IMG/VR virus record: IMGVR_UViG_2671180921_000023
Location: 1 to 34,489 of that record
Length of the DNA: 34,489 nucleotides
Reading direction: 5' to 3' (one strand)
Source: a virus
Taxonomy: Duplodnaviria > Heunggongvirae > Uroviricota > Caudoviricetes
In this document: positions 1 through 34,489 of the stretch, one piece after another
Position numbering within the stretch: the first letter of the stretch is position 1
Layout: each line of letters opens with the position of its first letter
Notes under the pieces: model-generated
Told to the model about the DNA's origin: nothing
Database searches by the model: none
What the model saw: the letters and a program-made list of their open reading frames with translations, nothing else
Program-made: the position numbers and the translations under genes

Positions 1-243
1 ATGTATACCTATAAAATGATTCAGGTGCCGCCGAATATTTCTGTAAAGGCAAAAGATAATAAAGCAGGGGTGGCTGCTGCATATCTTCAGAATGTTGTTA
101 ATGAACAGGCGGCGGATGGCTGGGAATTTCAACGGGTTGATACAATTGGTATAGAAGAGCAGCCAGGGTGTTTCGGTGGTGGAAAGGCTCAGTTTTTTCA
201 ATACTATGTGATTACTTTTAGAAAAAAAGTATCAGATGCTTAA
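1..243 (+). CDS. Small DUF4177-like hypothetical protein; flank gene, or prophage cargo if the element extends past the window edge
   Basis: 80-aa ORF at window start, overlaps the next ORF by 8 nt (operon-like). Fold-family guess only; ORF may be truncated upstream by the window edge. Confidence 0.45.
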   Translation: MYTYKMIQVPPNISVKAKDNKAGVAAAYLQNVVNEQAADGWEFQRVDTIGIEEQPGCFGGGKAQFFQYYVITFRKKVSDA

Positions 244-469
244 ATGGCTTAGTATACATCTGATTCTTTATTATCGTGCTCATGCGCCAGCAAGCATTCG
301 TAACAGATGTCGTTATAGCCCAAGCTGCTCAGCTTATACCTTGATTGCAATAAGGCGCTTTGGTTTTTTTGAAGGGTGGCGATTAGGATTGAACCGGATC
401 TATCGCTGTCGTCCGCCTAATGGTGGCGCTGATTATCCCCCGCATATTTGTAAATGTCGCAAATCGTGA
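236..469 (+). CDS. YidD-family (DUF37) small protein, membrane protein insertion efficiency factor-like
   Basis: 77-aa ORF with the cysteine-rich YidD-like pattern (CRYSPSCSAY ... FG ... G ... CRPPNGGADYPP). Followed by a hairpin plus T-run at 488-518. Confidence 0.55.
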   Translation: MLKWLSIHLILYYRAHAPASIRNRCRYSPSCSAYTLIAIRRFGFFEGWRLGLNRIYRCRPPNGGADYPPHICKCRKS

Positions 470-487
470 GTGCGTTGGAAAAAGAAA

Positions 488-518
488 CCCGCAGTTTTTA
501 CGCTGCGGTTTTGTTGTT
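488..518 (+). terminator. Putative rho-independent terminator after the YidD-like gene
   Basis: Stem ccgcag/ctgcgg with an 8-nt loop, followed by ttttgttgtt. Confidence 0.45.
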
Positions 519-598
519 CATGTCTGTGAGATAGGGTGCCTTATCGACCTTACCCTGGCAACCGATTGACGGGGGATTGCTCCCCCGTCGCGGTTTCC

Positions 599-739
599 TT
601 ACTGCTTACACTGTAAGAACGCCGCAAACTCCGCTCCCCAGAAGCTCATCCGTATTTCGCACAGCGAACCGTGCAGCATCCAGATGATGAGGATTACCGT
701 CACGCAGAACGTGATGGCTGTAAGCGATTTTTGCGACAT
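599..739 (-). CDS. hok: Hok/Gef-family type I toxin (46 aa; below the ORF-track size cutoff)
   Basis: Hand translation of the minus strand: MSQKSLTAITFCVTVILIIWMLHGSLCEIRMSFWGAEFAAFLQCKQ. N-terminal TM segment plus the Hok signature SLCEIR and EFAAF motif; AAGGAG RBS 8 nt upstream of the ATG; GC-rich hairpin just 3' of the stop. Confidence 0.65.
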   Translation of the reverse strand: MSQKSLTAITFCVTVILIIWMLHGSLCEIRMSFWGAEFAAFLQCKQ

Positions 740-955
740 AGCGCTTGCTCCTTTTTCGGAGAGGCGCTAACCTGTCACTTGCTTAGGGTAGACGGTTAGG
801 GCCTCGGTTAAACAGAGATGTTTTCCGGGGCCTTTCCACATCCGGCCTTCGGGTATTCCCTCCGACCATCAGCCGAAAGGCACCCGCGCGTAATTTACCG
901 TTTTCTGAGTTAATTCTCCAAATAAAATTCCAGAGTCAAAAACAGATACAGGCGA

Positions 956-1213
956 TCACATTACCGGAAACGGCAGTGACAACTGCGCATCACCCCGGTG
1001 AGACGCAGGCAGGCTTTGCCACGGAATATCCTGTGAAGTGCTGTCATAACGTTTAACAGTGATTTTGTCGAAACTCTCCAGCGTCGAGAAGGAGAGACTG
1101 CATTCCGGGTTGTTGCACTGGCAGAGTTTCCAGCGGACAGTTCCGGTATCGTTCGCTGCGCGACTGGTGCGGGTGCGGGTGCTCGCACCACAAAAAGGAC
1201 ACGGAAAAGACAC
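956..1213 (-). CDS. ogr: Ogr/Delta-type zinc-finger late gene transcriptional activator
   Basis: C4 zinc-finger pattern FPCPFCG ... CQCNNPEC; GTG start at 1213 preceded by AAGGAGG RBS. The longer ATG-initiated ORF (to 1285) would overlap the gpD 3' end. Sits downstream of D as in P2. Confidence 0.7.
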   Translation of the reverse strand: MSFPCPFCGASTRTRTSRAANDTGTVRWKLCQCNNPECSLSFSTLESFDKITVKRYDSTSQDIPWQSLPASHRGDAQLSLPFPVM

Positions 1214-1263
1214 GACGAAGACCTCCTTTTTCGTGAAGGTGAATCGTCGTGATTTTATTCCGG

Positions 1264-2397
1264 TTATTCCTGTTGCGCTATCCATTCAGGAATTTTTAAT
1301 TCCATCTCAAGCCGCGTGGTGAAGCCGCTGTCGTCGATGTTGTGCTCCACCTTCGCCAGCACCCAGTCTTCCGCGTCGATGTCGCTCTTGAAACCGGATA
1401 CCGTGCCGCGCATTTCGGGGTACAGGTCGGGGCGACCGCGTGCCAGTGTGATGGAGAACTCAGCCGCACCGCGCTGTAGCTGCTGCCACTTTGCCGCAGC
1501 GGCACGGCGTGCGGCCTCCTCGTTTTTGAAGGTTTGGCGCATGACGTACACATTGCCGTCTGCGCCCTCCATGTAATCCCCCTCGCGGCTGCTGCTTTTC
1601 TCTTTTTTTGTTTTTTGGGCAGAACCACGTTTCTTCACGCTGACTTTTTTCTTTTTGCCATAGTCCAGGTCCAGCCAGTAAGCGCGTACCCCCGTGTACG
1701 CCTGCCGGTCTGCAATGCGGAAGTGATGGCTGTCACCGCTGCTGCGGGTGATGGCGAATGAGGGCAGCGGCTTTCCGCTGGCGCTCACCCCCTGTCCGGG
1801 CACGATGAAAAGCAGTGCGCCGTTCTTGACGGTGGCTATGGCTCCCAGCATGTCTGCCATACGCGTGAGAAACGAGATGTCACTTTCCTCCGTCTGGTCG
1901 GCGTGGTCGATTTCCACCCCTGCCAGCGAAGCGCTGATTTGCGCTTTCAGCCCGTAACGATACGCGATGGCAGAAACAACCTGCCCCACCGTCACGTCAT
2001 GCCAGGACACTTCACGCTTCACGTTGAACTCCTGGCGGAAGTCTGCGCTGCTGGCCGTAATGGTGAGTCTGTCCGGCGGTCCCTCGTGTGTCACCTCGTC
2101 AACGATGAACGCTCCCTTGTCCGTCAGCGCCTCACCTTTCCAGCCCAGCGCCAGCCCCAGCTTCTGCCCGCGCTTCGGGAGACGCACGCCGCCGTCGCTG
2201 TCGTCAATCGTGAGGGTTAACTGGTCTGCTTCAAATCCCCGGTTGTCGGTCATTGCCAGCGAGATGACCCGTCGGGTTAACGCCTCGTTTTCCTCTTTTT
2301 TTCCGGTTTCCGCGTTGTCAGTCGTGACGGAAAAATCCGGTATCTTCACGCACTCTGCCAGCCCGGCGAGGTATCCGTTAATGCCCGAAAGGTTCAT
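1264..2397 (-). CDS. D: Tail protein gpD (late control gene D protein)
   Basis: Matches P2 gpD motifs (RVISLAMTDNRGFE, ADRQAYTGVRAYWLD, WQQLQRGAA). Start chosen at ATG 2397 (MNLSG); upstream ATG at 2430 is also possible. Confidence 0.85.
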   Translation of the reverse strand: MNLSGINGYLAGLAECVKIPDFSVTTDNAETGKKEENEALTRRVISLAMTDNRGFEADQLTLTIDDSDGGVRLPKRGQKLGLALGWKGEALTDKGAFIVDEVTHEGPPDRLTITASSADFRQEFNVKREVSWHDVTVGQVVSAIAYRYGLKAQISASLAGVEIDHADQTEESDISFLTRMADMLGAIATVKNGALLFIVPGQGVSASGKPLPSFAITRSSGDSHHFRIADRQAYTGVRAYWLDLDYGKKKKVSVKKRGSAQKTKKEKSSSREGDYMEGADGNVYVMRQTFKNEEAARRAAAAKWQQLQRGAAEFSITLARGRPDLYPEMRGTVSGFKSDIDAEDWVLAKVEHNIDDSGFTTRLEMELKIPEWIAQQE

Positions 2398-2560
2398 CCC
2401 GCTTTCTCCGTCTGTGTCTTCGTCCCGCAAATCATTTCACACACGCGAAATACACCGCGAGCCGCGCATGTTGTAGGAGAGCGGCGAGAAGGGGCGGCGC
2501 GTGAATGTCGGGGTGTTTTTCGGGAGGATAGTGCCACAGAAAAAACACCAGGAGGTGCTC
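2398..2560. promoter_or_regulatory. Divergent intergenic region between gpD and FI; presumed late promoters
   Basis: 163-bp gap between divergently oriented late operons. No clear Ogr-type TGT-N12-ACA site found by eye. Confidence 0.35.
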
Positions 2561-3742
2561 ATGAGTGAAACACGCTTTCACGGTGCGCGCGTCAAAGAAA
2601 ACACCGACCTCGTGACCGCGATTAATGACATTGATTCCAGTGTCATCGGTATCGTGGCCACGGCGGACGATGCAGACAGCGACGCGTTCCCGTTAAACAG
2701 GCCCGTACTGATCACCCGCGTGGTGAATGTGCTGGGTAAGGCAGGCACAACAGGCACGCTGTACAAAACGCTCAAGGCGATTTCCGACCAGACCAGCCCG
2801 AAGGTTATTGTGGTGCGTGTGGCAGAAGCCGGAGAGGAAGGTGAGACACAGGACCAGCTTGTCATCGGTGGCTCGCAGGCTGACGGCAGCTACACGGGCA
2901 TGTATGCCCTGCTGGTTGCCGAACAGGATGAGAGCATTGGTTACCGCCCGCGCATTCTGGCCGCGCCCGGCCTTGATACCGAAGCCGTCACATCTGCCCT
3001 GTGCGTCATTGCGGACAAGCTCCGCGCCTTTGTGTACGCCGGATGTAACGGCTGTGACACGATGGCGGAGGCAATCACCTACCGCGCGAATTTCTCTGCG
3101 CGTGAGCTGATGCTGCTGTGGCCTGACTTCATTGCCTACAACCCGGTGAGCGGAAATAACGAAACGTTTCCGGCAGCGGCGTATGCGTGCGGGTTGCGTG
3201 CGCGGATTGACAGTGAACAGGGCTGGCACAAGTCTCTGTCCAACGTGGCGCTGAAAAATGTGCTCGGTATGTCGCAGCAGGTGTTCTGGTCGTTGCAGGC
3301 CGAAGACAGTGATGCGAACAGCCTGAACAACAAGGAAATCACCACGATTATTCGCCGTAACGGCTTCCGCTTCTGGGGGAACCGTACTGCCGAAACCAGC
3401 GACTACATCTTTGAGGTGTACACGCGCACAGCGCAGATTCTGGCAGATACCATCGCTGAGGCGCAGTTCGAAACCATTGACGAACCGCTGACCCCGGCGA
3501 ACGTGAAGGACGTGATTAGCGCCATCCGCGCAAAACTCAATGCCCTGGTCACCGCCGGAAAACTTATCGGTGCGGAGTGCTGGTATGACGTGCTGGACAA
3601 CGGCACGACGGATTTACGTCAGGGGCGCGTGCGTATCCGCTACAAGTACACACCAGTGCCGCCGATGGAAGACCTGACGCTGTACCAGACCTTCACGGAT
3701 GAGTATTTCGACTCCGCTTTTGCAACGCTGGGAGGTGCGTAA
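2561..3742 (+). CDS. FI: Contractile tail sheath protein gpFI
   Basis: 393 aa from ATG 2561 with AGGAGG RBS; resembles P2 FI (FPLNRPVLITRV, tail sheath family). Confidence 0.9.
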   Translation: MSETRFHGARVKENTDLVTAINDIDSSVIGIVATADDADSDAFPLNRPVLITRVVNVLGKAGTTGTLYKTLKAISDQTSPKVIVVRVAEAGEEGETQDQLVIGGSQADGSYTGMYALLVAEQDESIGYRPRILAAPGLDTEAVTSALCVIADKLRAFVYAGCNGCDTMAEAITYRANFSARELMLLWPDFIAYNPVSGNNETFPAAAYACGLRARIDSEQGWHKSLSNVALKNVLGMSQQVFWSLQAEDSDANSLNNKEITTIIRRNGFRFWGNRTAETSDYIFEVYTRTAQILADTIAEAQFETIDEPLTPANVKDVISAIRAKLNALVTAGKLIGAECWYDVLDNGTTDLRQGRVRIRYKYTPVPPMEDLTLYQTFTDEYFDSAFATLGGA

Positions 3743-4258
3743 ATGGCTGTACCACGTTACGTTCGCCAGTTCACGCTGTTTGTGAACGGCAAAAACAAAA
3801 TCGGCACGGTGACAGGCGTCACTCTGCCTAAACTGACCCGAAAAACCGAAGCCTATCGCGGTGGCGGGATGCTGGGTGCGGTGCATATTGACCTCGGACT
3901 GGATGATGGCGCACTGGATGCCTCGTTCACCACCGGTGGGGTTGAAAAAGAGCTGCTCCAGGAATACGCCACTGAAATTAACGAAGTGGCGCTGCGCTTT
4001 GTGGGTGAGCTGTTCACCGATGGTGAGGAAAGTCAGCTCCTTGAGGTGGAAATGCGCGGGCGTATCACGGAAATCGACCGTGGCGAAACCAAACAGGGCG
4101 ACACCACACAGTACACCTTCGCCGTCAAAAACACCTACTACAAGGAGTCGGTGGATGACAGCGATGTGACAGAAATCGACCTGCTGAACTTCATCTACAA
4201 AAAAGACGGCCAGAACGTCTTTGGTGACCGCGTGAGTTCGGCGCTCGGTCTGAACTGA
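3743..4258 (+). CDS. FII: Tail tube protein gpFII
   Basis: 171 aa; ATG immediately after the FI stop, GGAGG RBS; P2 FII-like. Confidence 0.9.
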   Translation: MAVPRYVRQFTLFVNGKNKIGTVTGVTLPKLTRKTEAYRGGGMLGAVHIDLGLDDGALDASFTTGGVEKELLQEYATEINEVALRFVGELFTDGEESQLLEVEMRGRITEIDRGETKQGDTTQYTFAVKNTYYKESVDDSDVTEIDLLNFIYKKDGQNVFGDRVSSALGLN

Positions 4259-4304
4259 CAGCATTAACAGGGCGGCACATTGTGCCGCCACAGGAGAAAG
4301 AAAA

Positions 4305-4721
4305 ATGGCAGCAAAGAAAGATGACATCATGAACAGCGAAATCGTCGCAGGTGACACCACCACTGAAAACATCGATGTGGCAGAGGAAAACACTGCGGAT
4401 AACGCAGAAGCCGCAGAGGAAAAAACGGGGGTGAAGTTATCCTGCCCGGTGGTGCGTGGCGAACGCGTTATTGACTACGTGGAGATTGGCGAGGAAATCC
4501 GTCAGGCAGGCTCGTTGCGCGGGCTGTCGCTGATTGAGGTGCTGAACCTCAAAACGGACCCGATGATGACGCTGCTTTCGCGCGTGACCGCACCACGCCT
4601 GAAACTGGCAGAAATTCAGTCACTGTCCACCGGTGATTTCGTGGCGCTGGCGACTATGGCTGCGAATTTTTTTGCTCCCACGGAGTCTGCGAAACCGTCC
4701 GTGGCGGTGATGGAAGCGTAA
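4305..4721 (+). CDS. E: Tail assembly chaperone gpE
   Basis: 138 aa; gpE-like core (VVRGERVIDYVEIGEEIRQAGSLRGLSL); position between FII and the tape measure. Confidence 0.8.
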   Translation: MAAKKDDIMNSEIVAGDTTTENIDVAEENTADNAEAAEEKTGVKLSCPVVRGERVIDYVEIGEEIRQAGSLRGLSLIEVLNLKTDPMMTLLSRVTAPRLKLAEIQSLSTGDFVALATMAANFFAPTESAKPSVAVMEA

Positions 4722-24407: not shown

Positions 24408-24719
24408 TTATTCGGGGAATAAGGCCCTGATGTTTGCGGCCATCTGGCTGGGTGTCTGCACCTCTGGCGCAACCTGTACTTTGGGGCTTTCCGCCCTGAG
24501 CTGTGTCACGGGTAACGGCTCATCGTCAGCCCATGCAGCCAGCCGGTAAGCCTCTGCCGGATTCGTCTTCAGAAGTGCCAGCCCGGCCAGAAAAGCCACA
24601 CGTTGCCCGCTTTTGCGGGCTTCCGGTGTAAGGCTGTCCAGCCAGGCACATGCTTCGTTTTCGTTCTTGACTGCGGCTGGCTTCAGATAGAAACTTATCC
24701 GCCTGGTTGATGTTGTCAT
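24408..24719 (-). CDS. parR: ParR/StbB-like partition adaptor
   Basis: 103 aa, immediately downstream of parM; N-terminal RISFYLKPAAVKNE ... AFLAGLALL resembles plasmid R1 ParR. Confidence 0.65.
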   Translation of the reverse strand: MTTSTRRISFYLKPAAVKNENEACAWLDSLTPEARKSGQRVAFLAGLALLKTNPAEAYRLAAWADDEPLPVTQLRAESPKVQVAPEVQTPSQMAANIRALFPE

Positions 24720-24723
24720 TGGT

Positions 24724-25683
24724 TCACTCCCTGTTCATGTCATGGAGTCCATTAACCAGGGCAAACTGTGGCTCCGGTGTTGTGTGAATGTTTGCGTTGA
24801 GGCCGTAAGCGTCATGTACCGCCGGAGCCACAATCTCCGCCCCTCCACCGACAATCATCACCCGACCGTATCCCGAAAAGCCCGCCAGTGCGCGGATCAC
24901 GCGTTGTTTCAGTGTTTCTTCCTTTTCACGAATAACCGCCATCAGGCTGGCGTAATGCGCGTCATTGTGGATGTGCTGGCGCAGCCAGGCTTCATCGTGG
25001 CGATGTTCGATAATGGTATTGGCGATGTGGTGACTGGTACGCATACCGTTAGTGGCCATCACCGACAGTACGGCATCGGTCATCAGTGAAACGCCTACGT
25101 GTGGATCGCAAAATACCTGGCTGATGCCTGCCAGTTGCCCCTGAACCTTTGCCACATCCAGCGTGGTTCCGCCTAAATCCACAATCAGCAGGGATTCAAA
25201 CGGACTCATGTCAGCCAGTGCTTTAAAACCAGCCGGAATGGATTCAGGCATAACCCGTACGTTACGGATAGTGAATGCTTTTCCGTTCTGGTACGCCACC
25301 GGGCGCATGACGTTTGCTTTTTTGCGGTTGATGTTGGCCATGTCCGGCTGTGCGTTTGTGTCGAAATACTCGCTCAGTGGCAGGGTGACAACCACATCCA
25401 CTTCCTGTGGTGTGATGCCTGATTTGACCAGCGCGTGATGAATGGCAATGACATTCACATCGCTGTACTGGTATTGCGTGTCGGTCGTCTGGACAAAGCG
25501 ATCGCTGACCGGATCAAAACCATAGCGCACGCCATCAAGCATGTAGTTCGCGGGCTGCGTGCCACCGAACGGCGCAGACCATTCCGACTTGAAGCTGTTC
25601 GGGCTGATGGCGTTGCGGCGTTCGCCGTTCTCAGTCCATGCCAGCTTGATGTTGGTGGAGCCGTCATCGATACAAATTTTCAT
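24724..25683 (-). CDS. parM: ParM/StbA actin-like segregation ATPase
   Basis: 319 aa with ParM phosphate-binding motifs: IDDGSTNIKL, FTIRNVRVMPESIPAG, LLIVDLGGTTLDV, VMIVGGGAE. Co-linear with R1 ParM. Confidence 0.85.
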   Translation of the reverse strand: MKICIDDGSTNIKLAWTENGERRNAISPNSFKSEWSAPFGGTQPANYMLDGVRYGFDPVSDRFVQTTDTQYQYSDVNVIAIHHALVKSGITPQEVDVVVTLPLSEYFDTNAQPDMANINRKKANVMRPVAYQNGKAFTIRNVRVMPESIPAGFKALADMSPFESLLIVDLGGTTLDVAKVQGQLAGISQVFCDPHVGVSLMTDAVLSVMATNGMRTSHHIANTIIEHRHDEAWLRQHIHNDAHYASLMAVIREKEETLKQRVIRALAGFSGYGRVMIVGGGAEIVAPAVHDAYGLNANIHTTPEPQFALVNGLHDMNRE

Positions 25684-25714
25684 GTCGCTTTTCCTTATGT
25701 TGATTAATTAATCG

Positions 25715-25827
25715 TTTACGGGATTCTGAAATCCCGTTTTTGCCTGTTTTGTGCGCGCTTCATATATCGCTGCGCGTTTTTTGCTCATTTACGGGATTCG
25801 TGAGTCCCGTTTCTGTCTGTTTTTTGT
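25715..25827. repeat. Two 40-bp direct repeats, each a hairpin plus T-run; candidate parC centromere/promoter or origin-associated element
   Basis: Copy 1 at 25715-25753 (intergenic, upstream of parM); copy 2 at 25788-25827 (inside the last codons of gene A). Each has an ACGGGATT-type 8-bp stem. Confidence 0.5.
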
Positions 25828-28600
25828 TTCCGCTGGTCAGGCCACCCCGCAGCAGGTCTGCTTTGCGGCTGGCGCGTTCAGTGGTTTCACTGATTCTCTG
25901 TGCGTGCTCTGCGTCGCGGATGGCGCGCAGCATGTCAGAAAGCACGGTAACGGGTGTTTTCATGGTGTTCTGGTCCTGCTGAAGTGTGGATGCCAGGCGT
26001 GCGGCGGCTTCAGGGTCTGATGCCCCCAGCTGTGCCAGATAGCTGGCGACCGGGTTATGGCGGATCTCCGTGCTGCTTACGCCATGATTACGGCTCAGGC
26101 GCTGCCAGAGCTGCGTGATTCGGCTGTCCGGGCGGGTATCCGGTTTGCGTACAATTTCAAATCCCTGCGGTGCAATGATGCTGCCGTCAACGTACAGACT
26201 GCCGCCCCGTAACAGGTGCTGCATCTGTTGTTCACCGATATGCAGGCCGAGAGATTCAGCAGACTCCCGCCATTCTTTAGCGAGTAATTCGTGGTTATCA
26301 GGCAAAGGCCGCTGCTGTTTGCGGCTCTGTGTCCAGCTCTGCATTTCATCACTGCTGTTTTTTGCCTGTTTGTCACGAAGCGAACGCATCAGCGCCCGGC
26401 GTTCGTGCCGTTTCAGTGAGCGCATCCATTCGTTCACTTCAACGCCGTCAGGGAGCTGCGGCCACGGTGCTGGCCGTTCTTCCGGCTGTTCTGTCCCGTT
26501 GTTGTCCGTTTCCTGTACACGGGGACAGTTATTGCCACGAGTCCAAGGGGCGGCAGGGCCGCCCTGAAGGTCAAAACCATTTTCGCGGGAGCTGTCTTCC
26601 GCTTCCGGTTTACGTCTTACCAGCTTCCAGTTATCCGGGTGCGTGCACACACGGGAGGATTCCCCGATGAGTGGTGACCAGATCCCGTAAATCTGTACAC
26701 TCTGTTCGCCGTAATCGTTCAGCTCATCTGCGAGGTCGTAGGCGGTGCGAATCAGGTAGTCTTTACGTGGAACAAGTACTCCGCCCTGTTTCTCAATGTA
26801 GGTGGCAAAACATCCGGCATCAGCGGCAGCAAGAACCGCATCCATTGCGTCATCCTTCAGCCGTTGTGGGCCTTCCGGGTTGCGTGCCATCTGGCTGGCA
26901 AGGCGGCGCAGTTCACGCCATACCTGACGGGAGGGGATACCAAAGAACTGGAACTGGCGGACCCGGTGAAGGCGCGCCCAGCCGATGGCGCGCTCCACGC
27001 TCTCGGCCATTGATTTTCCGGTTTCGTGGTCAACGCGTGGCTTGCCCGTTTTCGGGTCGATGCCATCCACGGCGCGGCTATCCAGGTTCTTTCCGATGTA
27101 GGTGGCGATGTAGCTGGTTGGCGTGCCTTTCGAACCGTCGACGTACTCTGCCTTAAAGCGCGGAGTAATATCATTGCCCAGCTCGTGGCGGTCTTCCTGA
27201 ATGGCAATATCGCAGACGTGGGACACGATGGTTTCAATCTCGTCCGGATGTGCAAAGACCATCATATGCCAGTGCACCGTGCCGTCATGGTGAGGCTCCA
27301 CCGTGCGGATGCCATACCAGCGCAGACCGTCGCGGTTCAGTTTTTTGCGGACCGCCGCAAAAAACGTGTTAACCAGGTAATCGCTGGAGTCGCGCATGGT
27401 GGCTCCGTTCCATTTGGGGTTCGGATGACCGTTCTCCGTTGTTGCGTGGTATTTTGACGGGCAGGTGACAGTCAGAAACACCGCTCTGTCGCCACGGGCT
27501 TCGGCCAGAAGTTCCAGCCCCTTCATGGTGGCCATCATTTCTGCCTTACGGTGAACCGGGTTACTTACTCCCGCGTAATACACTGTCTCGAGATCAATCG
27601 TGAACCCGTCTTCATTTTCCAGCATGAAACTTTTCAGGAAATCGCGTGTTTTCTCGCGCTGTGCGCGAAACTCGCTTAACGCGTCCTGGCTCAGATAGGG
27701 TGATGTTTTTCTGGAAACCAGACAGGCGGCGCGGAGTTGTTCTTCTCTCCACTCGCAACGTAACAGCCACAGTTTGCGTTTCCACCATTCCGCACAGGTC
27801 AGGCGAAGGATTGCGCCCGGCAGCAGCTCCGTGTCCGGTTCGTTCCTCCGGTCTTTGTCTGTTGTCAGTGCGTCATAATGTGGAGGCATGGCGTGCAGGT
27901 GTAACGCCATGCGGGCCAGCATCTGATACGCCTTCAGCGTTACATCCATGGTCAGTTCGCCATCAGTAGCGCCAAAGCCATCGCAGAGTTTTTCGAAGGT
28001 GCTGCTGAACATCGCCGCCGTCATGGTGGCCAGCGTCTGTATCTGGTGTTTGTTGAGCTGCGGCAGGTAAAGCAAATCGTCCAGGCGTTCGCGTCCGGCA
28101 AGGGAGCGATAACCCGGTGTCAGCCAGCGGTGATCGGTGCGGTCCAGACGTTCGAATATTTTGCGCAGGGTTCCGCGCGCGTAGCGTTCAGCCTGCCAGC
28201 TCTTTTTGCCTTTCTGGCGATCGGCTTCCTGTTTTTTGCGCAGGAAAGAGAGGTGGCGGCTCAGAGGTTCACGCAGATAAACGGGAAGCACCTTCAGTGT
28301 GGCAAAAGCACGGGCCACCGGGTCTTGTTCTGTTGCCTGACGCTTGCTGATGATGCTTTGTGCCAGCTTTTCACGCTGTCCGGCTTCCTCAAGGGATGCC
28401 ATGAGTTTTTTACCCATGGCGGATTGTGCGAAAAAGGCTTCCTCCTTCGCTTCCTGTTCTTCCTGGGCCTTTTTGTCTGCCTCAAGGTAGTAACGGATGG
28501 CGCGTTGCAGGTCGGTTTCAGTTTCCTGCCTGCACTCCGTAAATCTGGCCGGATCAATGGCTGGCCGCGGTTCATTCCAGCTCCATGCAAACTCACTCAT
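25760..28600 (-). CDS. A: Replication initiation protein gpA (rolling-circle HUH endonuclease)
   Basis: About 946 aa, P2 gpA-like with HUH motif (VHWHMMVF). Start at ATG 28600 overlaps the upstream stop (ATGA coupling). Confidence 0.85.
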   Translation of the reverse strand: MSEFAWSWNEPRPAIDPARFTECRQETETDLQRAIRYYLEADKKAQEEQEAKEEAFFAQSAMGKKLMASLEEAGQREKLAQSIISKRQATEQDPVARAFATLKVLPVYLREPLSRHLSFLRKKQEADRQKGKKSWQAERYARGTLRKIFERLDRTDHRWLTPGYRSLAGRERLDDLLYLPQLNKHQIQTLATMTAAMFSSTFEKLCDGFGATDGELTMDVTLKAYQMLARMALHLHAMPPHYDALTTDKDRRNEPDTELLPGAILRLTCAEWWKRKLWLLRCEWREEQLRAACLVSRKTSPYLSQDALSEFRAQREKTRDFLKSFMLENEDGFTIDLETVYYAGVSNPVHRKAEMMATMKGLELLAEARGDRAVFLTVTCPSKYHATTENGHPNPKWNGATMRDSSDYLVNTFFAAVRKKLNRDGLRWYGIRTVEPHHDGTVHWHMMVFAHPDEIETIVSHVCDIAIQEDRHELGNDITPRFKAEYVDGSKGTPTSYIATYIGKNLDSRAVDGIDPKTGKPRVDHETGKSMAESVERAIGWARLHRVRQFQFFGIPSRQVWRELRRLASQMARNPEGPQRLKDDAMDAVLAAADAGCFATYIEKQGGVLVPRKDYLIRTAYDLADELNDYGEQSVQIYGIWSPLIGESSRVCTHPDNWKLVRRKPEAEDSSRENGFDLQGGPAAPWTRGNNCPRVQETDNNGTEQPEERPAPWPQLPDGVEVNEWMRSLKRHERRALMRSLRDKQAKNSSDEMQSWTQSRKQQRPLPDNHELLAKEWRESAESLGLHIGEQQMQHLLRGGSLYVDGSIIAPQGFEIVRKPDTRPDSRITQLWQRLSRNHGVSSTEIRHNPVASYLAQLGASDPEAAARLASTLQQDQNTMKTPVTVLSDMLRAIRDAEHAQRISETTERASRKADLLRGGLTSGNKKQTETGLTNPVNEQKTRSDI

Positions 28601-29016
28601 GGCTGGTATCCCGTCACGCGCTGCCACTCCTGCGAGAAGAGGGTGGAAAGGCGGTTAAACTCAGCGGTGTATTCACTCAGCGAGGCACACCCGCCAGCAG
28701 TGTGATGCGCCAGCATTGCCGCAAATACGGAGGCCGGGGAGTCGTAATACGCCAGCAGTGATTCGCCGTGTGGTGTCAGGCAGTGCAACGCCAGCCCGTG
28801 TGGTGTCAGGCAGTGCAACGCCAGCCCGTGTGGTGTGAAGTCCACGCGGTAGCAGTCGTCTACTGTGAAATAAAGGGTGTCCGCATTCTCCGGTTTTGTG
28901 GTGCGTGCTCTGTTGTCACGACCGCGGATGTAGAGATCAAATAATCCCTGAAGAACGGGAGCCAGACGGGTGTCCTGTGTGCGCACCCATCTTGTGAAGT
29001 CATGAGCGTCAATCAT
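28597..29016 (-). CDS. Hypothetical early protein (139 aa) with an internal in-frame tandem duplication
   Basis: Protein repeat TPHGLALHCL x2 plus a partial third, encoded by a perfect 30-bp tandem repeat; translationally coupled to A. Confidence 0.5.
   Translation of the reverse strand: MIDAHDFTRWVRTQDTRLAPVLQGLFDLYIRGRDNRARTTKPENADTLYFTVDDCYRVDFTPHGLALHCLTPHGLALHCLTPHGESLLAYYDSPASVFAAMLAHHTAGGCASLSEYTAEFNRLSTLFSQEWQRVTGYQP
28767..28836. repeat. Perfect 30-bp tandem direct repeat (2 full copies plus a 10-bp partial) inside a CDS
   Basis: cgtgtggtgtcaggcagtgcaacgccagcc repeated at 28767-28796 and 28797-28826, then cgtgtggtgt. Confidence 0.9.
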
Positions 29017-29088
29017 GCTGCAATTCTCTTTACTACAGATGTGCGAAGGCCTCCCGCCGCAAGGTGCAGGAAAGGCCCGGAACAGGAA

Positions 29089-29319
29089 TTAATGGAGTTT
29101 GTTTTGCTGCTGGATGAGATCCTGAAGAGACAGGAGGTCTTCCGCCAGATAGCTGAATACAGCGGCGCAGTAGTCGGCTGAAATAGTGCTGTTGAGTCTG
29201 TGCAATGTGTTGGATTGCATGATAAAAGCGATGTGTGCAGCGCGGGTGAGTCTGCGGTTGATTTCAGTCTGGATGTGACGACGCTCCGCGATAGCGCGGT
29301 GCTGTTTGCGGTTTGCCAT
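29089..29319 (-). CDS. Hypothetical early protein (76 aa)
   Basis: Helical-looking basic small ORF; preferred over the overlapping low-complexity 205-aa ORF in another frame. Confidence 0.4.
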   Translation of the reverse strand: MANRKQHRAIAERRHIQTEINRRLTRAAHIAFIMQSNTLHRLNSTISADYCAAVFSYLAEDLLSLQDLIQQQNKLH

Positions 29320-29496
29320 GATGTGGCCTCTTTGGTTGTAAGTTTTGAAAACTCACCATCCAGAGCTGCGAAACTGTGGGTGGCGAGACGTACGAGGTTC
29401 GCAGTACCGGCAACCAAAGAACCCGGCCCGACCGAAGTCGGCCCCGTACGTCCCGCCATAATTCGTGTGCGAAAAAGACGTGGCAATACAGTACGC

Positions 29497-29520
29497 ACAA
29501 AAAAACCGCTGGCGCGGTTG
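29497..29520 (-). terminator. Putative intrinsic terminator/attenuator inside the early operon
   Basis: Minus-strand hairpin aaccgc-gcca-gcggtt followed by 7 T; lies in a 320-bp non-coding gap. Confidence 0.35.
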
Positions 29521-29639
29521 TGTGCTTTGGTTGTCAGCAGGCTGCGAAACCCGGCATCCGTTTTATGAGATGCAGCGGAAATGTAACCTGACTGATTGCG
29601 GCATGGCAAGCGGTTTTTTTGTGTGTACATAGTGGTTAC

Positions 29640-30191
29640 TCAGTCCGGTAGTAGTTCGCAAAGCACGGTATCAGCGGCGGTATATCGTGCGTAAAGCCTG
29701 GCGGGGACCCATCTTTTAAGGGATATCCCGGTCGTGTCCCGGATGTGCTTCCTGATTTCGCTGAATGTCATCCCCTTCTCATCACGCAGTTCAGTTACCA
29801 GCTCCACCAGGTGATCGCTGTATCTGGTTCTGTGGTGGAGTTCCCCGTATTTCCTGAACCGATACCCTCTTTTTCTCAGGTTCAGTTCTACCGTGGATGG
29901 CGAGCGCCCCAGCTCATTCGCGAGTTCCCGGATGGTTTTTGTGTGGCGATTCCTGATGAGCATGCTGAGTTCTTTTGTACTCAGTGGAGTTTGTTTGGCG
30001 TGAATAATCCCCTGAGAGAGCAAAAGACGGATGCGGCTTCGTATTGCTGACTCGGTTCTCTGAAAGTGCTTTGTCAGCTCCGGCGCTGTGTGGGAGTGGT
30101 ATAACGTGGCTAAAAGTTCATCCTCCTGCTGTGTCCATGGCTTTACATGTGCCGGAGCCACACCAGGCGTACCCATTGGTTTGAGTTTCAT
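29640..30191 (-). CDS. Multi-helix-turn-helix DNA-binding early protein (183 aa)
   Basis: Three HTH-like segments (for example LSTKELSMLIRNRHTKTIRELANELGRSPSTV); function unknown, possibly replication or regulation. Confidence 0.5.
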   Translation of the reverse strand: MKLKPMGTPGVAPAHVKPWTQQEDELLATLYHSHTAPELTKHFQRTESAIRSRIRLLLSQGIIHAKQTPLSTKELSMLIRNRHTKTIRELANELGRSPSTVELNLRKRGYRFRKYGELHHRTRYSDHLVELVTELRDEKGMTFSEIRKHIRDTTGISLKRWVPARLYARYTAADTVLCELLPD

Positions 30192-30205
30192 TGTGATTTA
30201 CTCCC

Positions 30206-30505
30206 TTACTGGTTAAGGAAAAAATCGAAAACGTTGTCGATGCGTTGCAGCAGCTCCTGCTGCATCGCTTCCGGCGTTTCTGATTCACCTGGTGACTCCA
30301 GCGGTGCGCAGAAATCCTTGATTTCATGATGGAGCGTCAGGCGAATGGCAGGAGCCATGGTTCTGGCGTGCTCCAGCTCATCCAGAAGCGCCAGCACGGC
30401 AGACGGCGAGAGCATTGCGCAAAACGCCAGTAATTTTTGATGTGTTGCCATTCGTTGCAGGTCAGTCGCCAGTTCGCGTAATTTCTGGTGGTTGATGGTG
30501 CTCAT
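30206..30505 (-). CDS. Hypothetical early protein (99 aa)
   Basis: Contains PSAVLALLDE, shared with the 179-aa accessory protein; 4-nt overlap with the upstream gene. Confidence 0.45.
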   Translation of the reverse strand: MSTINHQKLRELATDLQRMATHQKLLAFCAMLSPSAVLALLDELEHARTMAPAIRLTLHHEIKDFCAPLESPGESETPEAMQQELLQRIDNVFDFFLNQ

Positions 30506-30741
30506 GCTCTGGCTTCCTTCAGTAGCTGGTTAAACATGTGGGTTAGTGGGTTGCCACACCCGAACGGCAGCGTGTTCACCTCGTAGCAAAACTCCGATGC
30601 GCGTTCTTTCCTGTTAACGTGACCATCGCTCCAGAGTTGGCGTAGCCCTCTAGTGATAACTTGTTTTGGCATATTCAATGCGGCTGCAATCTCGCTACTG
30701 GTGCATCCCGGATGGGCTGCGATGTAGTCCAGAATGGTCAT
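30502..30741 (-). CDS. Small winged-helix-like DNA-binding protein (79 aa)
   Basis: MTILDYIAAHPGCTSSEIAAALNMPKQVITRGLRQL resembles a wH/HTH recognition module. Confidence 0.45.
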   Translation of the reverse strand: MTILDYIAAHPGCTSSEIAAALNMPKQVITRGLRQLWSDGHVNRKERASEFCYEVNTLPFGCGNPLTHMFNQLLKEARA

Positions 30742-30941
30742 CTGCGTGGCTCCTGTACCTGTCGGATAAGATTCACCCGTGCCACGTTGGTGGCGCAGAA
30801 GTAAGTGCCGTCAGTGAGATAGATGTGATGTGCATCCTTTTCTGAACGGTGTTTGTCGATTGTGGTAATCAGGCGTTCGTCAACTTCGTATTCACGTCCT
30901 CTGGAGGTGAAACGAACGACAGGAAAATGCTTAATTGCCAT
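30738..30941 (-). CDS. Hypothetical early protein (67 aa)
   Basis: Start at ATG 30941 with AGGAGG RBS; the ORF-track start at 30992 is less likely. Confidence 0.45.
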   Translation of the reverse strand: MAIKHFPVVRFTSRGREYEVDERLITTIDKHRSEKDAHHIYLTDGTYFCATNVARVNLIRQVQEPRR

Positions 30942-31027
30942 TACGCCTCCTGGGGGTGTGCGAATACCTCCGCGAATGCGGATTTTTTTCACATTTTCTT
31001 ATTTAAACTGGTGTTTTATTGGCGCTG

Positions 31028-31141
31028 TTATTCGCCAGTGAAAAAACGTTCAATCTTTTTCACGGAATCAATAATTCGCACAATGCCAATGGCGCAGAAC
31101 ACCGAAATAACCAGGACAAGCCAGGATATAAATATACTCAT
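31028..31141 (-). CDS. Putative 37-aa single-pass membrane peptide, translationally coupled to the upstream gene
   Basis: Hand translation: MSIFISWLVLVISVFCAIGIVRIIDSVKKIERFFTGE. ATGA overlap with the stop of the 80-aa gene. Below the ORF-track size cutoff. Confidence 0.35.
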   Translation of the reverse strand: MSIFISWLVLVISVFCAIGIVRIIDSVKKIERFFTGE

Positions 31142-31380
31142 GCGATATTCCCCAGTGTGTACGGCTTAATATAATCCCCGTTTTCTGCGGCGCAGACGAG
31201 TTCGGAAAGTTCGTCGAGTGCATCGAAATCGTCAGCGTAAAAAGCTGCGTCGTACAGACTCCTGATGGCTCTGGTCAATGACTCGCGGGCTGCACGTTCA
31301 GCATGAACCCCTGATGCGCTTAAACGAAAATAAAAACGCTCAAGAGCTTTGTTGATGAGGGTTTTGTATTCTGTACCCAT
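31138..31380 (-). CDS. Hypothetical early protein (80 aa)
   Basis: Acidic helical small ORF in the early operon. Confidence 0.45.
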   Translation of the reverse strand: MGTEYKTLINKALERFYFRLSASGVHAERAARESLTRAIRSLYDAAFYADDFDALDELSELVCAAENGDYIKPYTLGNIA

Positions 31381-31401
31381 CTGGCGTTATCCCGAAAATA
31401 A

Positions 31402-31659
31402 TTAAAGAAGATGCTCGATTGATTTACCGGATTTAATCTGTTCAATCATTTCGTTAATCATGAAGAACGGTGGATAATCATTTGCGACTGCGGCAACCTC
31501 TCTTAATGACTCCAGTCCGTTAATCAGTTGGCGTTTTGCTTTGGCTGGACTTCTTTCTCCGTTAAGCATTTTGAAAGCGCAGTGCGTGACTACTCGATGA
31601 GCAAGACATCGGTAGACCGCCTCCGGTGTTGCTTTTTCGCCTGTTGTTGAGGCTGTCAT
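31402..31659 (-). CDS. Hypothetical early protein (85 aa)
   Basis: Small ORF in the early operon; no recognised domain. Confidence 0.45.
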   Translation of the reverse strand: MTASTTGEKATPEAVYRCLAHRVVTHCAFKMLNGERSPAKAKRQLINGLESLREVAAVANDYPPFFMINEMIEQIKSGKSIEHLL

Positions 31660-31662
31660 TGG

Positions 31663-32013
31663 TCAATGGCTCCACGGGTGCTGAAAACTACGGCCTGCAA
31701 TTAAGCGGTCAACGGTGCGCAGTGCTTCGTATAATGTGAAATCCTGTCCGAACTGATTGTCGCCGTTGCTCAGTGCAAAAATGCGGTTTCCGGTAAACGG
31801 ATTACGTGGGCATTTGTGGACCACGATTCCAGCTTTCTCAATCAGCCAGGCATGTTCGCCGATTTGTTTTACAACGTGACCATCTGGTGTCGCGTGTGTA
31901 TTGCTCAGGCTGTAGCGGATGCTATTGCGCGATGCGCTGGTAGCGAAACGGTTGGTGTGGCGTTTCGTTCCGTTGTGGAAGCGCTGCTGTGAAGAATTGC
32001 GCCGTTCTTTCAT
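31663..32013 (-). CDS. Hypothetical early protein (up to 116 aa; start uncertain)
   Basis: ORF in the early operon directly after the cox-like gene. Confidence 0.4.
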   Translation of the reverse strand: MKERRNSSQQRFHNGTKRHTNRFATSASRNSIRYSLSNTHATPDGHVVKQIGEHAWLIEKAGIVVHKCPRNPFTGNRIFALSNGDNQFGQDFTLYEALRTVDRLIAGRSFQHPWSH

Positions 32014-32050
32014 ATCAAAATACTCCGCCTAAAATGAATTATTGTTTGAG

Positions 32051-32476
32051 TTATGCTGCTTTACCGCTGATATTTCTGTTTCGCCTGCCACTTGTTGGCT
32101 TAAATAAAAACAGACGGTTTTCCCAGTCGTGCCATTCCTGAGGTGCGTTTTCGATGAGTCGATCGCATGCTTCATCCCACGCTTTTCTGTTGATGTAGAG
32201 TTCAGCGTTTCCGCCTGGTTTGAGAGGGTCCGCCATATACACCGCAGGTAGCTTTCCTGCTTTGGCCATGCTTACGATGGCGTCAACGGTCTTTCCGATA
32301 TATATCGCAAATCCTTCTTTTGACAGGAGATGCGAGGGATTTTCTGAAAGTCGAATTTCTTCACGTTCACGTGCTTTGCGTCCTGTTTTTTGATGCTCCC
32401 CTTCTGGCATTTTTGGCTGGTGATCGCATCGTGTTTCGCAAAGTGACTCAGGCGCGTTTTGAGTGCTTTCTTGCAT
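32051..32476 (-). CDS. cox: Cox-like early regulator/excision directionality factor (start uncertain; likely shorter than the 141-aa ORF)
   Basis: First gene of the operon divergent from C; C-terminal part (KEGFAIYIGKTVDAIVSMAKAGKLPAV) resembles the Cox HTH family. Confidence 0.5.
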   Translation of the reverse strand: MQESTQNAPESLCETRCDHQPKMPEGEHQKTGRKAREREEIRLSENPSHLLSKEGFAIYIGKTVDAIVSMAKAGKLPAVYMADPLKPGGNAELYINRKAWDEACDRLIENAPQEWHDWENRLFLFKPTSGRRNRNISGKAA

Positions 32477-32505
32477 CTGATATCCTCCGCCATTGGTGCT
32501 TTCTT

Positions 32506-32533
32506 CTAACTAGCACCATTTAGAACTAGTTAG
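32506..32533. promoter_or_regulatory. Candidate operator in the C/cox divergent promoter region
   Basis: Perfect inverted repeat CTAACTAG-N12-CTAGTTAG, with internal direct repeats of AACTAG. Confidence 0.45.
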
Positions 32534-32584
32534 CGCAATCCATCGTGTGTTAATTGATGCATAAACCAAGTGAGTTAACTTACT

Positions 32585-32884
32585 ATGTCAACTACCGTAG
32601 CTATGAAAATTCGCATCATGCGGAAGTCAGAAATGCTTACGCAAGAAAAAATGGCAGAGATTACTGGGCTTACTCTTGCTGCATTAAGGCAATATGAGCA
32701 AGGACGAAATGAACCCAACCTTGAGTCAACAAAAAAGCTTCTGAAAGCTCCCATGTTCCGTAAGTACCGCGACTGGTTTCTGTTTGATGAAGTTGACCCC
32801 AAGGCCGGGCAGGTTGTGCCGGCTCTCGCACACATTGGGCAAGGCGAAGCGGAATTATCCCGCTCCGGCAAGAAAACTGGTTAA
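32585..32884 (+). CDS. C: P2 C-type immunity repressor
   Basis: 99 aa; IMRKSE ... PALAH ... GQ ... SGKKTG pattern and length match P2 C; position upstream of int. Confidence 0.8.
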   Translation: MSTTVAMKIRIMRKSEMLTQEKMAEITGLTLAALRQYEQGRNEPNLESTKKLLKAPMFRKYRDWFLFDEVDPKAGQVVPALAHIGQGEAELSRSGKKTG

Positions 32885-32950
32885 CGGTTCACCAGGCATT
32901 TTTTTCCCAGAGCTGTGATCAAGATGATGTTTTCATTGGAGGGCTTCCTT

Positions 32951-33946
32951 ATGTCGATTAAGAAGCTCGCTAATGGCAAATTTTGTGTGGACGTGCGGCC
33001 TGCTGGATCGGAAGGAAAGAGATTCAGACGGCGATTTGATACTCGTGGTGAGGCTGTTTTGTATGAGCGTCATGTATTGCAGCATTACCACGACAAAGAC
33101 TGGGTTGATAAGCCAACAGAACGGCGCTCGCTGAGGGAGTTGCTGGATTGTTGGTGGCTATACCACGGGAAAAATCATCCTTACGGTGCGATGGAGCGAG
33201 TGCGTATTTCTGCGGTCATTAGTGATCTTGAAAGTATTAATGTTACACGCAGTGACCAACTTACTCGTAAGAACATAATTAATTATCGCTTATTGCTGCT
33301 TAACCGCGGAATAAAACAATCCACGGTTAATCGTTATTGTGCAATGATGAGTGGTTTCTTCACAAAACTAATTGACGCAGAGGAATATTCTGGGGCTAAT
33401 CCGTTTCATGATGTAAAAAAACTTAATATCAAACAGCCTGAAATGGCTTATTTGTATCATGAAGATATTCCACGATTACTGGAGTTGTTATCTGGTGATG
33501 AATTAAAAGCCGTCTTGTTGTGTCTGGCAACAGGTGGAAGATGGAGTGAGGTTGCAAATATCAAGGGGGAGCATGTTATTAGCGGCAAAGTCATTTTTAT
33601 GGAAACCAAAAATGGGAAGCGTCGCGTTATACCTATATCGTCAGAACTGGAGTGCATGATTAAAACAAAGGCCACTGGTCGTTTAATTTATCCAAGTTAT
33701 GCAGCTGTCAGAGCTGCTATCAGAAAGGTGAGGCCCGATCTTCCTGAAGGGCAGTCGATACATGTTTTACGGCATACCTTTGCCACTCACTTCATGATTA
33801 ATGGTGGGAATATCATCACTTTGCAGAGAATACTTGGACATAGCACTATTCAGCAGACGATGACTTATGCCCATTTTGCACCGGATTATCTACAGGATGC
33901 TGTGCGCTTTAATCCTGTGGCTGAGTTGTCCAGATATTGCCCATAA
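32951..33946 (+). CDS. int: Tyrosine integrase (P2 Int-like)
   Basis: Start at ATG 32951 (MSIKKLANGKF) with GGAGGG RBS; catalytic R ... HVLRHTF ... GHSTIQQTMTYAH signature. Confidence 0.9.
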   Translation: MSIKKLANGKFCVDVRPAGSEGKRFRRRFDTRGEAVLYERHVLQHYHDKDWVDKPTERRSLRELLDCWWLYHGKNHPYGAMERVRISAVISDLESINVTRSDQLTRKNIINYRLLLLNRGIKQSTVNRYCAMMSGFFTKLIDAEEYSGANPFHDVKKLNIKQPEMAYLYHEDIPRLLELLSGDELKAVLLCLATGGRWSEVANIKGEHVISGKVIFMETKNGKRRVIPISSELECMIKTKATGRLIYPSYAAVRAAIRKVRPDLPEGQSIHVLRHTFATHFMINGGNIITLQRILGHSTIQQTMTYAHFAPDYLQDAVRFNPVAELSRYCP

Positions 33947-34008
33947 AATAGGACTAAATAAGCCGACTTAAGACTATGTGTATTGATGTAACTAATTGAT
34001 ATATCAAA

Positions 34009-34060
34009 GGGAGGCCAGTGTGCTCGGCCTCCTTCATGTCACCTTCGGGTGGCGTTGTTT
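34009..34060 (+). terminator. Two hairpins after int (the second followed by a T-rich run); terminator and/or att-proximal structure
   Basis: gggaggcc-loop-ggcctcc at 34009-34032; caccttcgggtg at 34040-34051 followed by gcgttgtttta. Confidence 0.4.
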
Positions 34061-34237
34061 TATGCGATGTATCTCGCGATTTTTTTTTGTAACTTTTCCA
34101 TCTTTTGCTTTTCTCTCCGAGCCGCTTTCCATATCTGCAATCGCATAAAAAACTCTGCTGGCGTTCACAAATGTGCAGGGGTAAAACGTTTCCTGTAGCA
34201 CCGTGAGTTATACTTTGTATAACTTAAGGAGGTGCAG

Positions 34238-34489
34238 ATGCGTATTACCATAAAAAGATGGGGGAACAGTGCAGGTATGGTCATTCCCAATATCGTAATG
34301 AAAGAACTTAACTTACAGCCGGGGCAGAGCGTGGAAGCGCAGGTGAGCAACAACCAACTGATTCTGACACCCATCTCCAGGCGCTACTCGCTTGATGAAC
34401 TGCTGGCACAGTGTGACATGAACGCCGCGGAACTTAGCGAGCAGGATGTCTGGGGTAAATCCACCCCTGCGGGTGACGAAATATGGTAA
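34238..34489 (+). CDS. chpS: ChpS (ChpBI) antitoxin of the chpB-chpS toxin-antitoxin pair
   Basis: 83 aa MRITIKRWGNSAGMVIPNIVMKELNLQPGQ ... GDEIW, complete; the stop TAA is the last 3 nt of the window. The ATGGTAA ending suggests an overlapping chpB start just beyond the window. Confidence 0.85.
   Translation: MRITIKRWGNSAGMVIPNIVMKELNLQPGQSVEAQVSNNQLILTPISRRYSLDELLAQCDMNAAELSEQDVWGKSTPAGDEIW

Follow-up and report, generated by a model that had tools for sequence, protein, structure and literature searches.

The 291-bp gap between int and chpS at the right end of a P2-family prophage is an ordinary prophage-host junction, and the attachment core it holds is not new but already published. Similarity edges place this core, the 14-bp sequence CACCTTCGGGTGGC, at positions 34040 to 34053 of the window (the whole 34,489-nt stretch of DNA analyzed here). 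We consider it very probable that the gap is the int-proximal junction of a P2-family (Peduoviridae) prophage with the integration module of coliphage P88. The P2-family prophage takes up the window, with ogr at its left end and the lysogeny module, cox and C-int, at its right end. The features on which the argument draws are the following.

956 to 1213, minus strand: ogr/Delta late-gene activator, the last core phage gene on that side (Pfam Ogr_Delta match on the called gene of the identical locus L013).
32051 to 32476, minus strand: cox, 141 aa.
32951 to 33946, plus strand: int, P2-family tyrosine integrase of 331 aa (Pfam Int_N and Phage_integrase; alignment with P2 Int).
33926 to 33946, plus strand: putative arm-type Int site TTGTCCAGATATTGCCCATAA (motif TTGTCCAGATATTGCC at 33926 to 33941), predicted from its likeness to the ogr-side arm and to P2 sites.
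33947 to 34039, no strand assigned: phage-derived int-side arm of attP, present in the P88 genome record and missing from the empty ytfP-chpS site.
33989 to 34001, minus strand: candidate IHF site, its function suggested by an exact match to the consensus WATCAANNNNTTR (TATCAATTAGTTA) in a pattern scan of the reconstructed attP.
34010 to 34032, no strand assigned: phage hairpin GGAGGCC-N9-GGCCTCC downstream of int (hairpin and terminator scans).
34036 to 34063, plus strand: hybrid terminator with an 8-bp stem and TGTTTTAT, its left stem from the phage, its loop and right stem from the core, and its T-tract from the host ytfP terminator.
34040 to 34053, plus strand: att core CACCTTCGGGTGGC, 14 bp, the crossover sequence (similarity breakpoints at both junctions; published P88 attP).
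34054 to 34237, no strand assigned: unaltered host ytfP-chpS intergenic DNA with a hairpin at 34063 to 34078 (100% identity to prophage-free MY1-8; terminator scan).
34193 to 34237, no strand assigned: 21-nt imperfect inverted repeat spanning the chpS ribosome-binding site (repeat scan).
34238 to 34489, plus strand: chpS antitoxin gene (Pfam MazE_antitoxin, PF04014; 100% DNA identity to the annotated chpS of MY1-8).

The start of int was taken as the ATG at 32951, which aligns with residue 1 (Met1) of P2 Int, and its stop codon TAA occupies 33944 to 33946. A preliminary description of this DNA had placed the end of int 291 bp before chpS and the int-side attachment site within 33947 to 34237, and both statements hold: int ends at 33946, chpS starts at 34238, and the core lies between them. 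The same description counted two hairpins in the gap. Those hairpins are real, but the number is three: the phage hairpin downstream of int is followed by a second with an 8-bp stem (34036 to 34055, then TGTTTTAT) and by a terminator-like third with a 5-bp stem (34063 to 34078, then a T run).

The boundaries of the core were drawn from comparison of occupied and empty sites. When window positions 33900 to 34489 were queried against 5426 complete E. coli genomes, the same int-chpS junction was found in 13 of them, and in nearly all of the remaining genomes the match began at query base 141, which is window position 34040. In the prophage-free strain MY1-8 the site reads ytfP-TAA-taataaaagcacgc-CACCTTCGGGTGGC-gttgttttatgcg... 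and runs on into chpS, such that the chpS upstream region comes directly after ytfP, without hok or yidD. The preliminary description had pointed to an uninterrupted chpS-upstream region as the informative comparison, and similarity to the empty site indeed starts exactly at 34040. The opposite edge came from a 141-nt ytfP-side junction queried against the same 5426 genomes: the match reaches precisely the final base of the 14-mer in every genome (5426/5426), and in 35 it extends into the phage arm. attB is thus present in 5426 of 5426 complete E. coli genomes and occupied in 35 (<1%), and the similarity edges on both junctions define the common core as CACCTTCGGGTGGC.

The left junction lies outside the window, and its position is taken from genomes that are identical over the first 4.5 kb. 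Two draft E. coli loci, L013 and L016, were retrieved by an exact-protein look-up with the YidD-like ORF; they have no mismatch to window 1 to 4469 and read ytfP ...aaaagcacgc-CACCTTCGGGTGGC-acgaaaactg..., with 147 nt between the 14-mer and window position 1. Because these loci are identical to the window over that length, the left attachment site lies beyond the window, with its core 148 to 161 bp ahead of position 1, which makes phage cargo of the DUF4177, YidD-like and hok genes. An earlier exact-protein look-up with the 80-aa ORF had returned only a 98.2% relative (L008), and in the species-representative genome collection no match was found to the core plus ogr-side arm or to the first 50 nt of the window. 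Within the window the 14-bp core is present in a single copy, and the left flank holds no copy of it at up to 3 mismatches. The preliminary description had offered either a left attachment site outside the window or a short core, and both turned out to be the case: at 14 bp the core falls just below the 15-bp repeat length that the description had set against its own reading, no repeat of at least 15 bp occurs at both ends, and chpS is at its chromosomal locus.

Copies of the core were located as attR at window 34040 to 34053, as attL in L013, L016 and L005 to L011, as attB in L001, and as attP in the P88 record. In its passages on attP, the P88 paper gives attP as "a 14-bp fragment (GCCACCCGAAGGTG)" (PMC5285337), which is the reverse complement of CACCTTCGGGTGGC. 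The passages also report excision and circularization at the core, and they leave ytfP and chpS unnamed (PMC5285337). The P88 genome (KP063541; Peduoviridae, genus Xuanwuvirus) is annotated as circular; the record opens and closes at the att core, with the ends joining as ...catgtCACCTTCGGGTGGC followed by acgaaaactgctg... (acgaaaactg...). Our search of the literature on ytfP as a prophage integration site found no report.

Strain cq9 carries a related prophage at the same site, with its ogr-side junction between ytfP and an 80-aa ORF that matches window 1 to 243. Its ytfP-side junction (L003:9771-9784) has the core as CACCTTCGGGGGGC, with T changed to G at core position 11. All other loci examined at the ytfP site have T at this position and cq9 alone differs; given this, and given several frameshifted phage genes in cq9, the variant is probably an assembly error or a SNP.

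The sequence that the integrase recognizes could extend beyond the 14-mer. An imperfect recognition site of some 19 bp, CA(c/t)G(c/t)CACCTTCGGGTGGC, of which the 14-mer would be only the perfect-identity part, is a possibility that we hold to be unlikely on balance, and it is largely compatible with the main explanation. When attB, attL, and attR are aligned, 17 of the 19 positions prove common to attP and attB, and occupied alternative sites match the core at 13/14 (bcsC) and 12/14 (mug terminator) positions, with the CACC/GGTGGC arms kept and the loop varying. On the other hand, both the published description and the exact similarity edges give 14 bp, and the additional matches, at three of five positions, could be due to chance.

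These alternative sites are of some interest in themselves. In the E. coli draft JAPXBA010000001.1 (L004:2838-2851), the ogr-side phage arm is joined to CACCTTCCGGTGGC within the bcsC coding sequence, and nearly all E. coli genomes have this core-like sequence as a native part of bcsC. bcsC, the cellulose-synthase outer-membrane gene, appears to contain a secondary att site and to be disrupted when that site is used. In LK931336.1 (L006:2820-2837), which is not E. coli and whose mug is only 77% identical, the same phage arm runs into the terminator hairpin that follows mug, CGCCACCTTGCGGTGGC. Because the differences from the core at the mug site are confined to the loop, they suggest that the integrase recognizes the CACC/GGTGGC stems and tolerates loop changes.

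Returning to the 14-bp core at the ytfP site, folding of the empty site shows that it makes up the loop and the upper part of the stem in an 8-bp hairpin, ACGCCACC-TTCG-GGTGGCGT, which in the attB locus (L001) is preceded by an A-run and followed by TGTTTTAT. This hairpin is a rho-independent terminator immediately after ytfP, and it is probably bidirectional. A tRNA gene as the target was rejected: the core coincides with the ytfP terminator hairpin, and an ARAGORN scan of the window gave neither a tRNA nor a tmRNA. Integration into genes for dyad-symmetric RNA structures is known among temperate phages from the tRNA-targeting integrases, such as those of 186 and HP1. As in integration of the 186/HP1 type, the crossover here falls within sequence that encodes a hairpin, in its loop and stem, and the half that is lost is replaced by one from the phage, such that a hairpin is rebuilt at a junction; the difference is that the target is an intrinsic terminator rather than a tRNA. 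At the chpS-side junction the stem of the rebuilt hairpin has 8 bp, two of them G-U pairs (AUGUCACC/GGUGGCGU), and the T-tract of the host is kept. At the ytfP-side junction (fold of L005) the stem is down to 6 bp and is followed by ACGAAAAC in place of the T-tract. The ogr-side phage arm has a stem-loop and T-run of its own (AGCCCGC...GCGGGCTGTTTT, found by eye rather than by folding) ahead of the cargo genes.

In the mechanism that we propose, the tyrosine integrase (32951 to 33946) would have recombined attP, ...CATGT-CACCTTCGGGTGGC-ACGAAAAC..., with attB, ...CACGC-CACCTTCGGGTGGC-GTTGTTTT.... The junction in the window comprises the phage arm (33947 to 34039), the core, and intact host DNA up to chpS, and the other junction, just left of window position 1, comprises ytfP, the core, the 147-bp phage arm, and the DUF4177 gene, such that the sequence expected upstream of position 1 is ...GATAAGTAATAATAAAAGCACGC-CACCTTCGGGTGGC-ACGAAAACTG.... 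By analogy with P2, Int may bind TGTCCACA-like arm motifs on both arms as well as the dyad-symmetric core (CACC/GGTG arms), IHF would bend the DNA while Int bridges arm sites and core, strand exchange would occur within the central 6 to 8 bp of the core, and Cox would direct excision. Integration leaves a hairpin and T-tract at the chpS-side junction.

Several observations bear on the protein and on the predicted arm sites. Int has the Pfam domains PF24624 (Int_N) and PF00589 (Phage_integrase), and its alignment with P2 Int spans 327 aa at 46% identity and brings the conserved catalytic-region motifs RHTFATHF and TYAHF into register. The putative int-side arm site overlaps the int stop codon, and its motif matches TTGTCCACATATTGCC at 15 of 16 positions in the ogr-side arm of L013, 48 to 63 nt beyond the core; a match this good in a 20-nt window was equaled by 1 of 300 shuffles. 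Both putative motifs can be aligned with the arm sites, Int P and P', annotated in phage P2. Further, P2 and the window prophage have in common the gene order ogr, att, int, C, cox, as well as TGTCCACA-like repeats on both arms, of which the int-side repeat overlaps the 3' end of int in both phages. In other respects the two differ. The P2 core, annotated at 27 bp, is unrelated in sequence to the core in the window; the stretch from ogr to att holds no cargo genes in P2, unlike in the window prophage; and P2 cox has 276 nt (about 91 aa), compared with 141 aa for Cox in the window. The annotated IHF site of P2 is on the ogr-side arm, whereas the consensus match in the window is on the int-side arm, so that the arm architecture would not be a simple copy of that of P2.

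The likeness to P88 lies in the int/early region and in the att-proximal cargo. Int and the int-side arm have 98.8% DNA identity to P88 and the ogr-side arm sequence is the same, with 86% to 97% identity in the early/lysogeny region. The aligned ends are 1 to 907 and 24408 to 34053, and 14.9 kb of the 34.5-kb window aligns. The late (structural) region in between (908 to 24407), which includes the tail and head genes, is about 74% to 78% identical to P88 or does not align. Given the partial alignment and the diverged tail and head genes, the window prophage is a mosaic relative of P88 and not P88 itself, and the integration module has passed between Peduoviridae lineages by exchange. Because its structural genes have diverged from those of P88, the inducibility of P88 cannot be assumed for the window prophage.

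Two other features of the prophage were recorded. At 29376 to 29573 (minus strand), in the early region, the Rfam scan gives two adjacent matches, both over the gathering score, to C4 antisense RNA (85 bits) and the Hfq-binding RNA isrK (65 bits). At 24408 to 25683 (minus strand), where identity to P88 is 95.7%, ORFs of 319 aa and 103 aa have the lengths and relative positions of cq9 genes annotated as a ParM plasmid segregation protein and a partitioning/stability protein; this ParM-type likeness is one of length and position and makes the pair a candidate plasmid-type partition module, which would be unusual in a P2-like integrating prophage.

Between the ogr-side arm and ogr lie the following cargo genes.

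1 to 469, plus strand: DUF4177-like ORF (1 to 243) overlapping a YidD-like ORF (236 to 469); phage cargo (Pfam; homologous region in P88).
479 to 907, minus strand: hok/Gef-type cassette; phage cargo (annotated Hok/Gef; present in P88).

The DUF4177-like assignment is below the Pfam cut-off, and the YidD-like ORF is a paralogue of the membrane-protein-insertion factor; the overlapping pair, placed between att and hok, is found at a coverage of at least 80% in only about 20 complete E. coli genomes. The hok/Gef cassette is present in 1563 of the 5426 genomes, in up to 7 copies each and mostly at other loci. Window positions 1 to 907 match the P88 genome record at 91.4% (91% for the DUF4177 and hok cargo in the genome comparison). 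The preliminary description had reasoned that a left attachment site outside the window would make hok and the YidD-like genes cargo, and their homologues in the P88 genome bear this out.

The gene order tamB-ytfP-[prophage]-chpS-chpB-ppa-ytfQ is the normal chromosomal place of chpS, and the synteny ytfP...chpS-chpB-ppa is seen in cq9 and MY1-8. A MazE/AbrB-type antitoxin gene, an overlapping chpB (of which the first 7 nt alone are inside the window), and the ytfP-ppa locus identify chpSB as the type II toxin-antitoxin system of that name. Identity and synteny thus agree with the earlier view of a complete, chromosomal-type chpS downstream of the prophage. chpSB is itself a variable cassette, of which 34189 to 34489 is the part in the window. 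In strains without chpSB, such as MRSN346647, ppa comes directly after ytfP and 34040 to 34188 is still shared with the window; similarity ends near 34188, roughly 50 bp before chpS, so that the cassette, including the promoter/operator palindrome, starts at about 34189. The inverted repeat at 34193 to 34237 is likely this promoter/operator, and it is inside the chpSB cassette. A sigma-70 consensus scan of 33800 to 34489 found no promoter, so the position of the chpS promoter is one that we infer.

It had been suggested that insertion close to the chpS promoter could alter expression of the toxin-antitoxin system. This suggestion is not supported: recombination took place in the ytfP terminator hairpin and not in the chpS promoter, leaving 184 bp to the chpS ATG and about 135 bp to the left edge of the chpSB cassette, and the terminator scan finds two terminator-like hairpins with T-tracts between int and chpS. 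With these hairpins in the way, altered chpSB expression seems unlikely, and chpSB is probably unaffected by integration. A broader proposal is that integration rewires its neighbors, with int read-through into chpSB or, after loss of the T-tract, tamAB-ytfP read-through into the phage cargo. Int and chpS do have the same orientation, and the hairpin on the ytfP side does shrink to 6 bp with ACGAAAAC instead of the T-tract. However, the chpS side keeps its two terminator-like hairpins with T-tracts, the 184 bp next to chpS are unchanged, and the ogr-side arm has its own stem-loop and T-run (by eye) upstream of the cargo, and we consider such rewiring improbable. We give still less credence to the split terminator being regulatory, with tamAB-ytfP reading into the prophage arm, or to a P88-type prophage being functionally linked to chpSB in stabilization or defense; no observation here requires either of these readings.

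There remains the short repeat within the window. The preliminary description had found no convincing repeat of the gap in the ogr-side flank, with a best shared string of 9 bp, and the repeat search gave the same picture. The longest direct matches between 1 to 1300 and 33801 to 34489 are three 9-mers, with about 3.4 expected by chance (1300 x 689 position pairs x 4^-9). One of these, CCTTCGGGT, occurs at 846, within the hok cassette, and at 34042, where it overlaps the true core (34042 to 34050). If this exact 9-bp match were the core, the prophage would start at about 846 and the hok, YidD-like and DUF4177 genes would be chromosomal, but we regard this as almost certainly wrong, given that such matches are expected by chance, that 479 to 907 is a hok cassette found at many loci in the 1563 genomes and adjoins ogr, that 1 to 907 has counterparts in the P88 phage genome, and that the identical genomes put ytfP and the full 14-mer upstream of position 1; it is refuted by the empty site, where hok and yidD are missing and the region upstream of chpS directly adjoins ytfP. 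The match at 846 is due to chance.

The junction formed by the 14-bp P88 core has little importance beyond annotation. For the annotation of this prophage, it fixes the right end at 34040 to 34053 and the left end 148 to 161 bp before the window. The published attP of P88 corresponds to the ytfP terminator hairpin, and the DNA of chpSB and its promoter region are untouched by the prophage.
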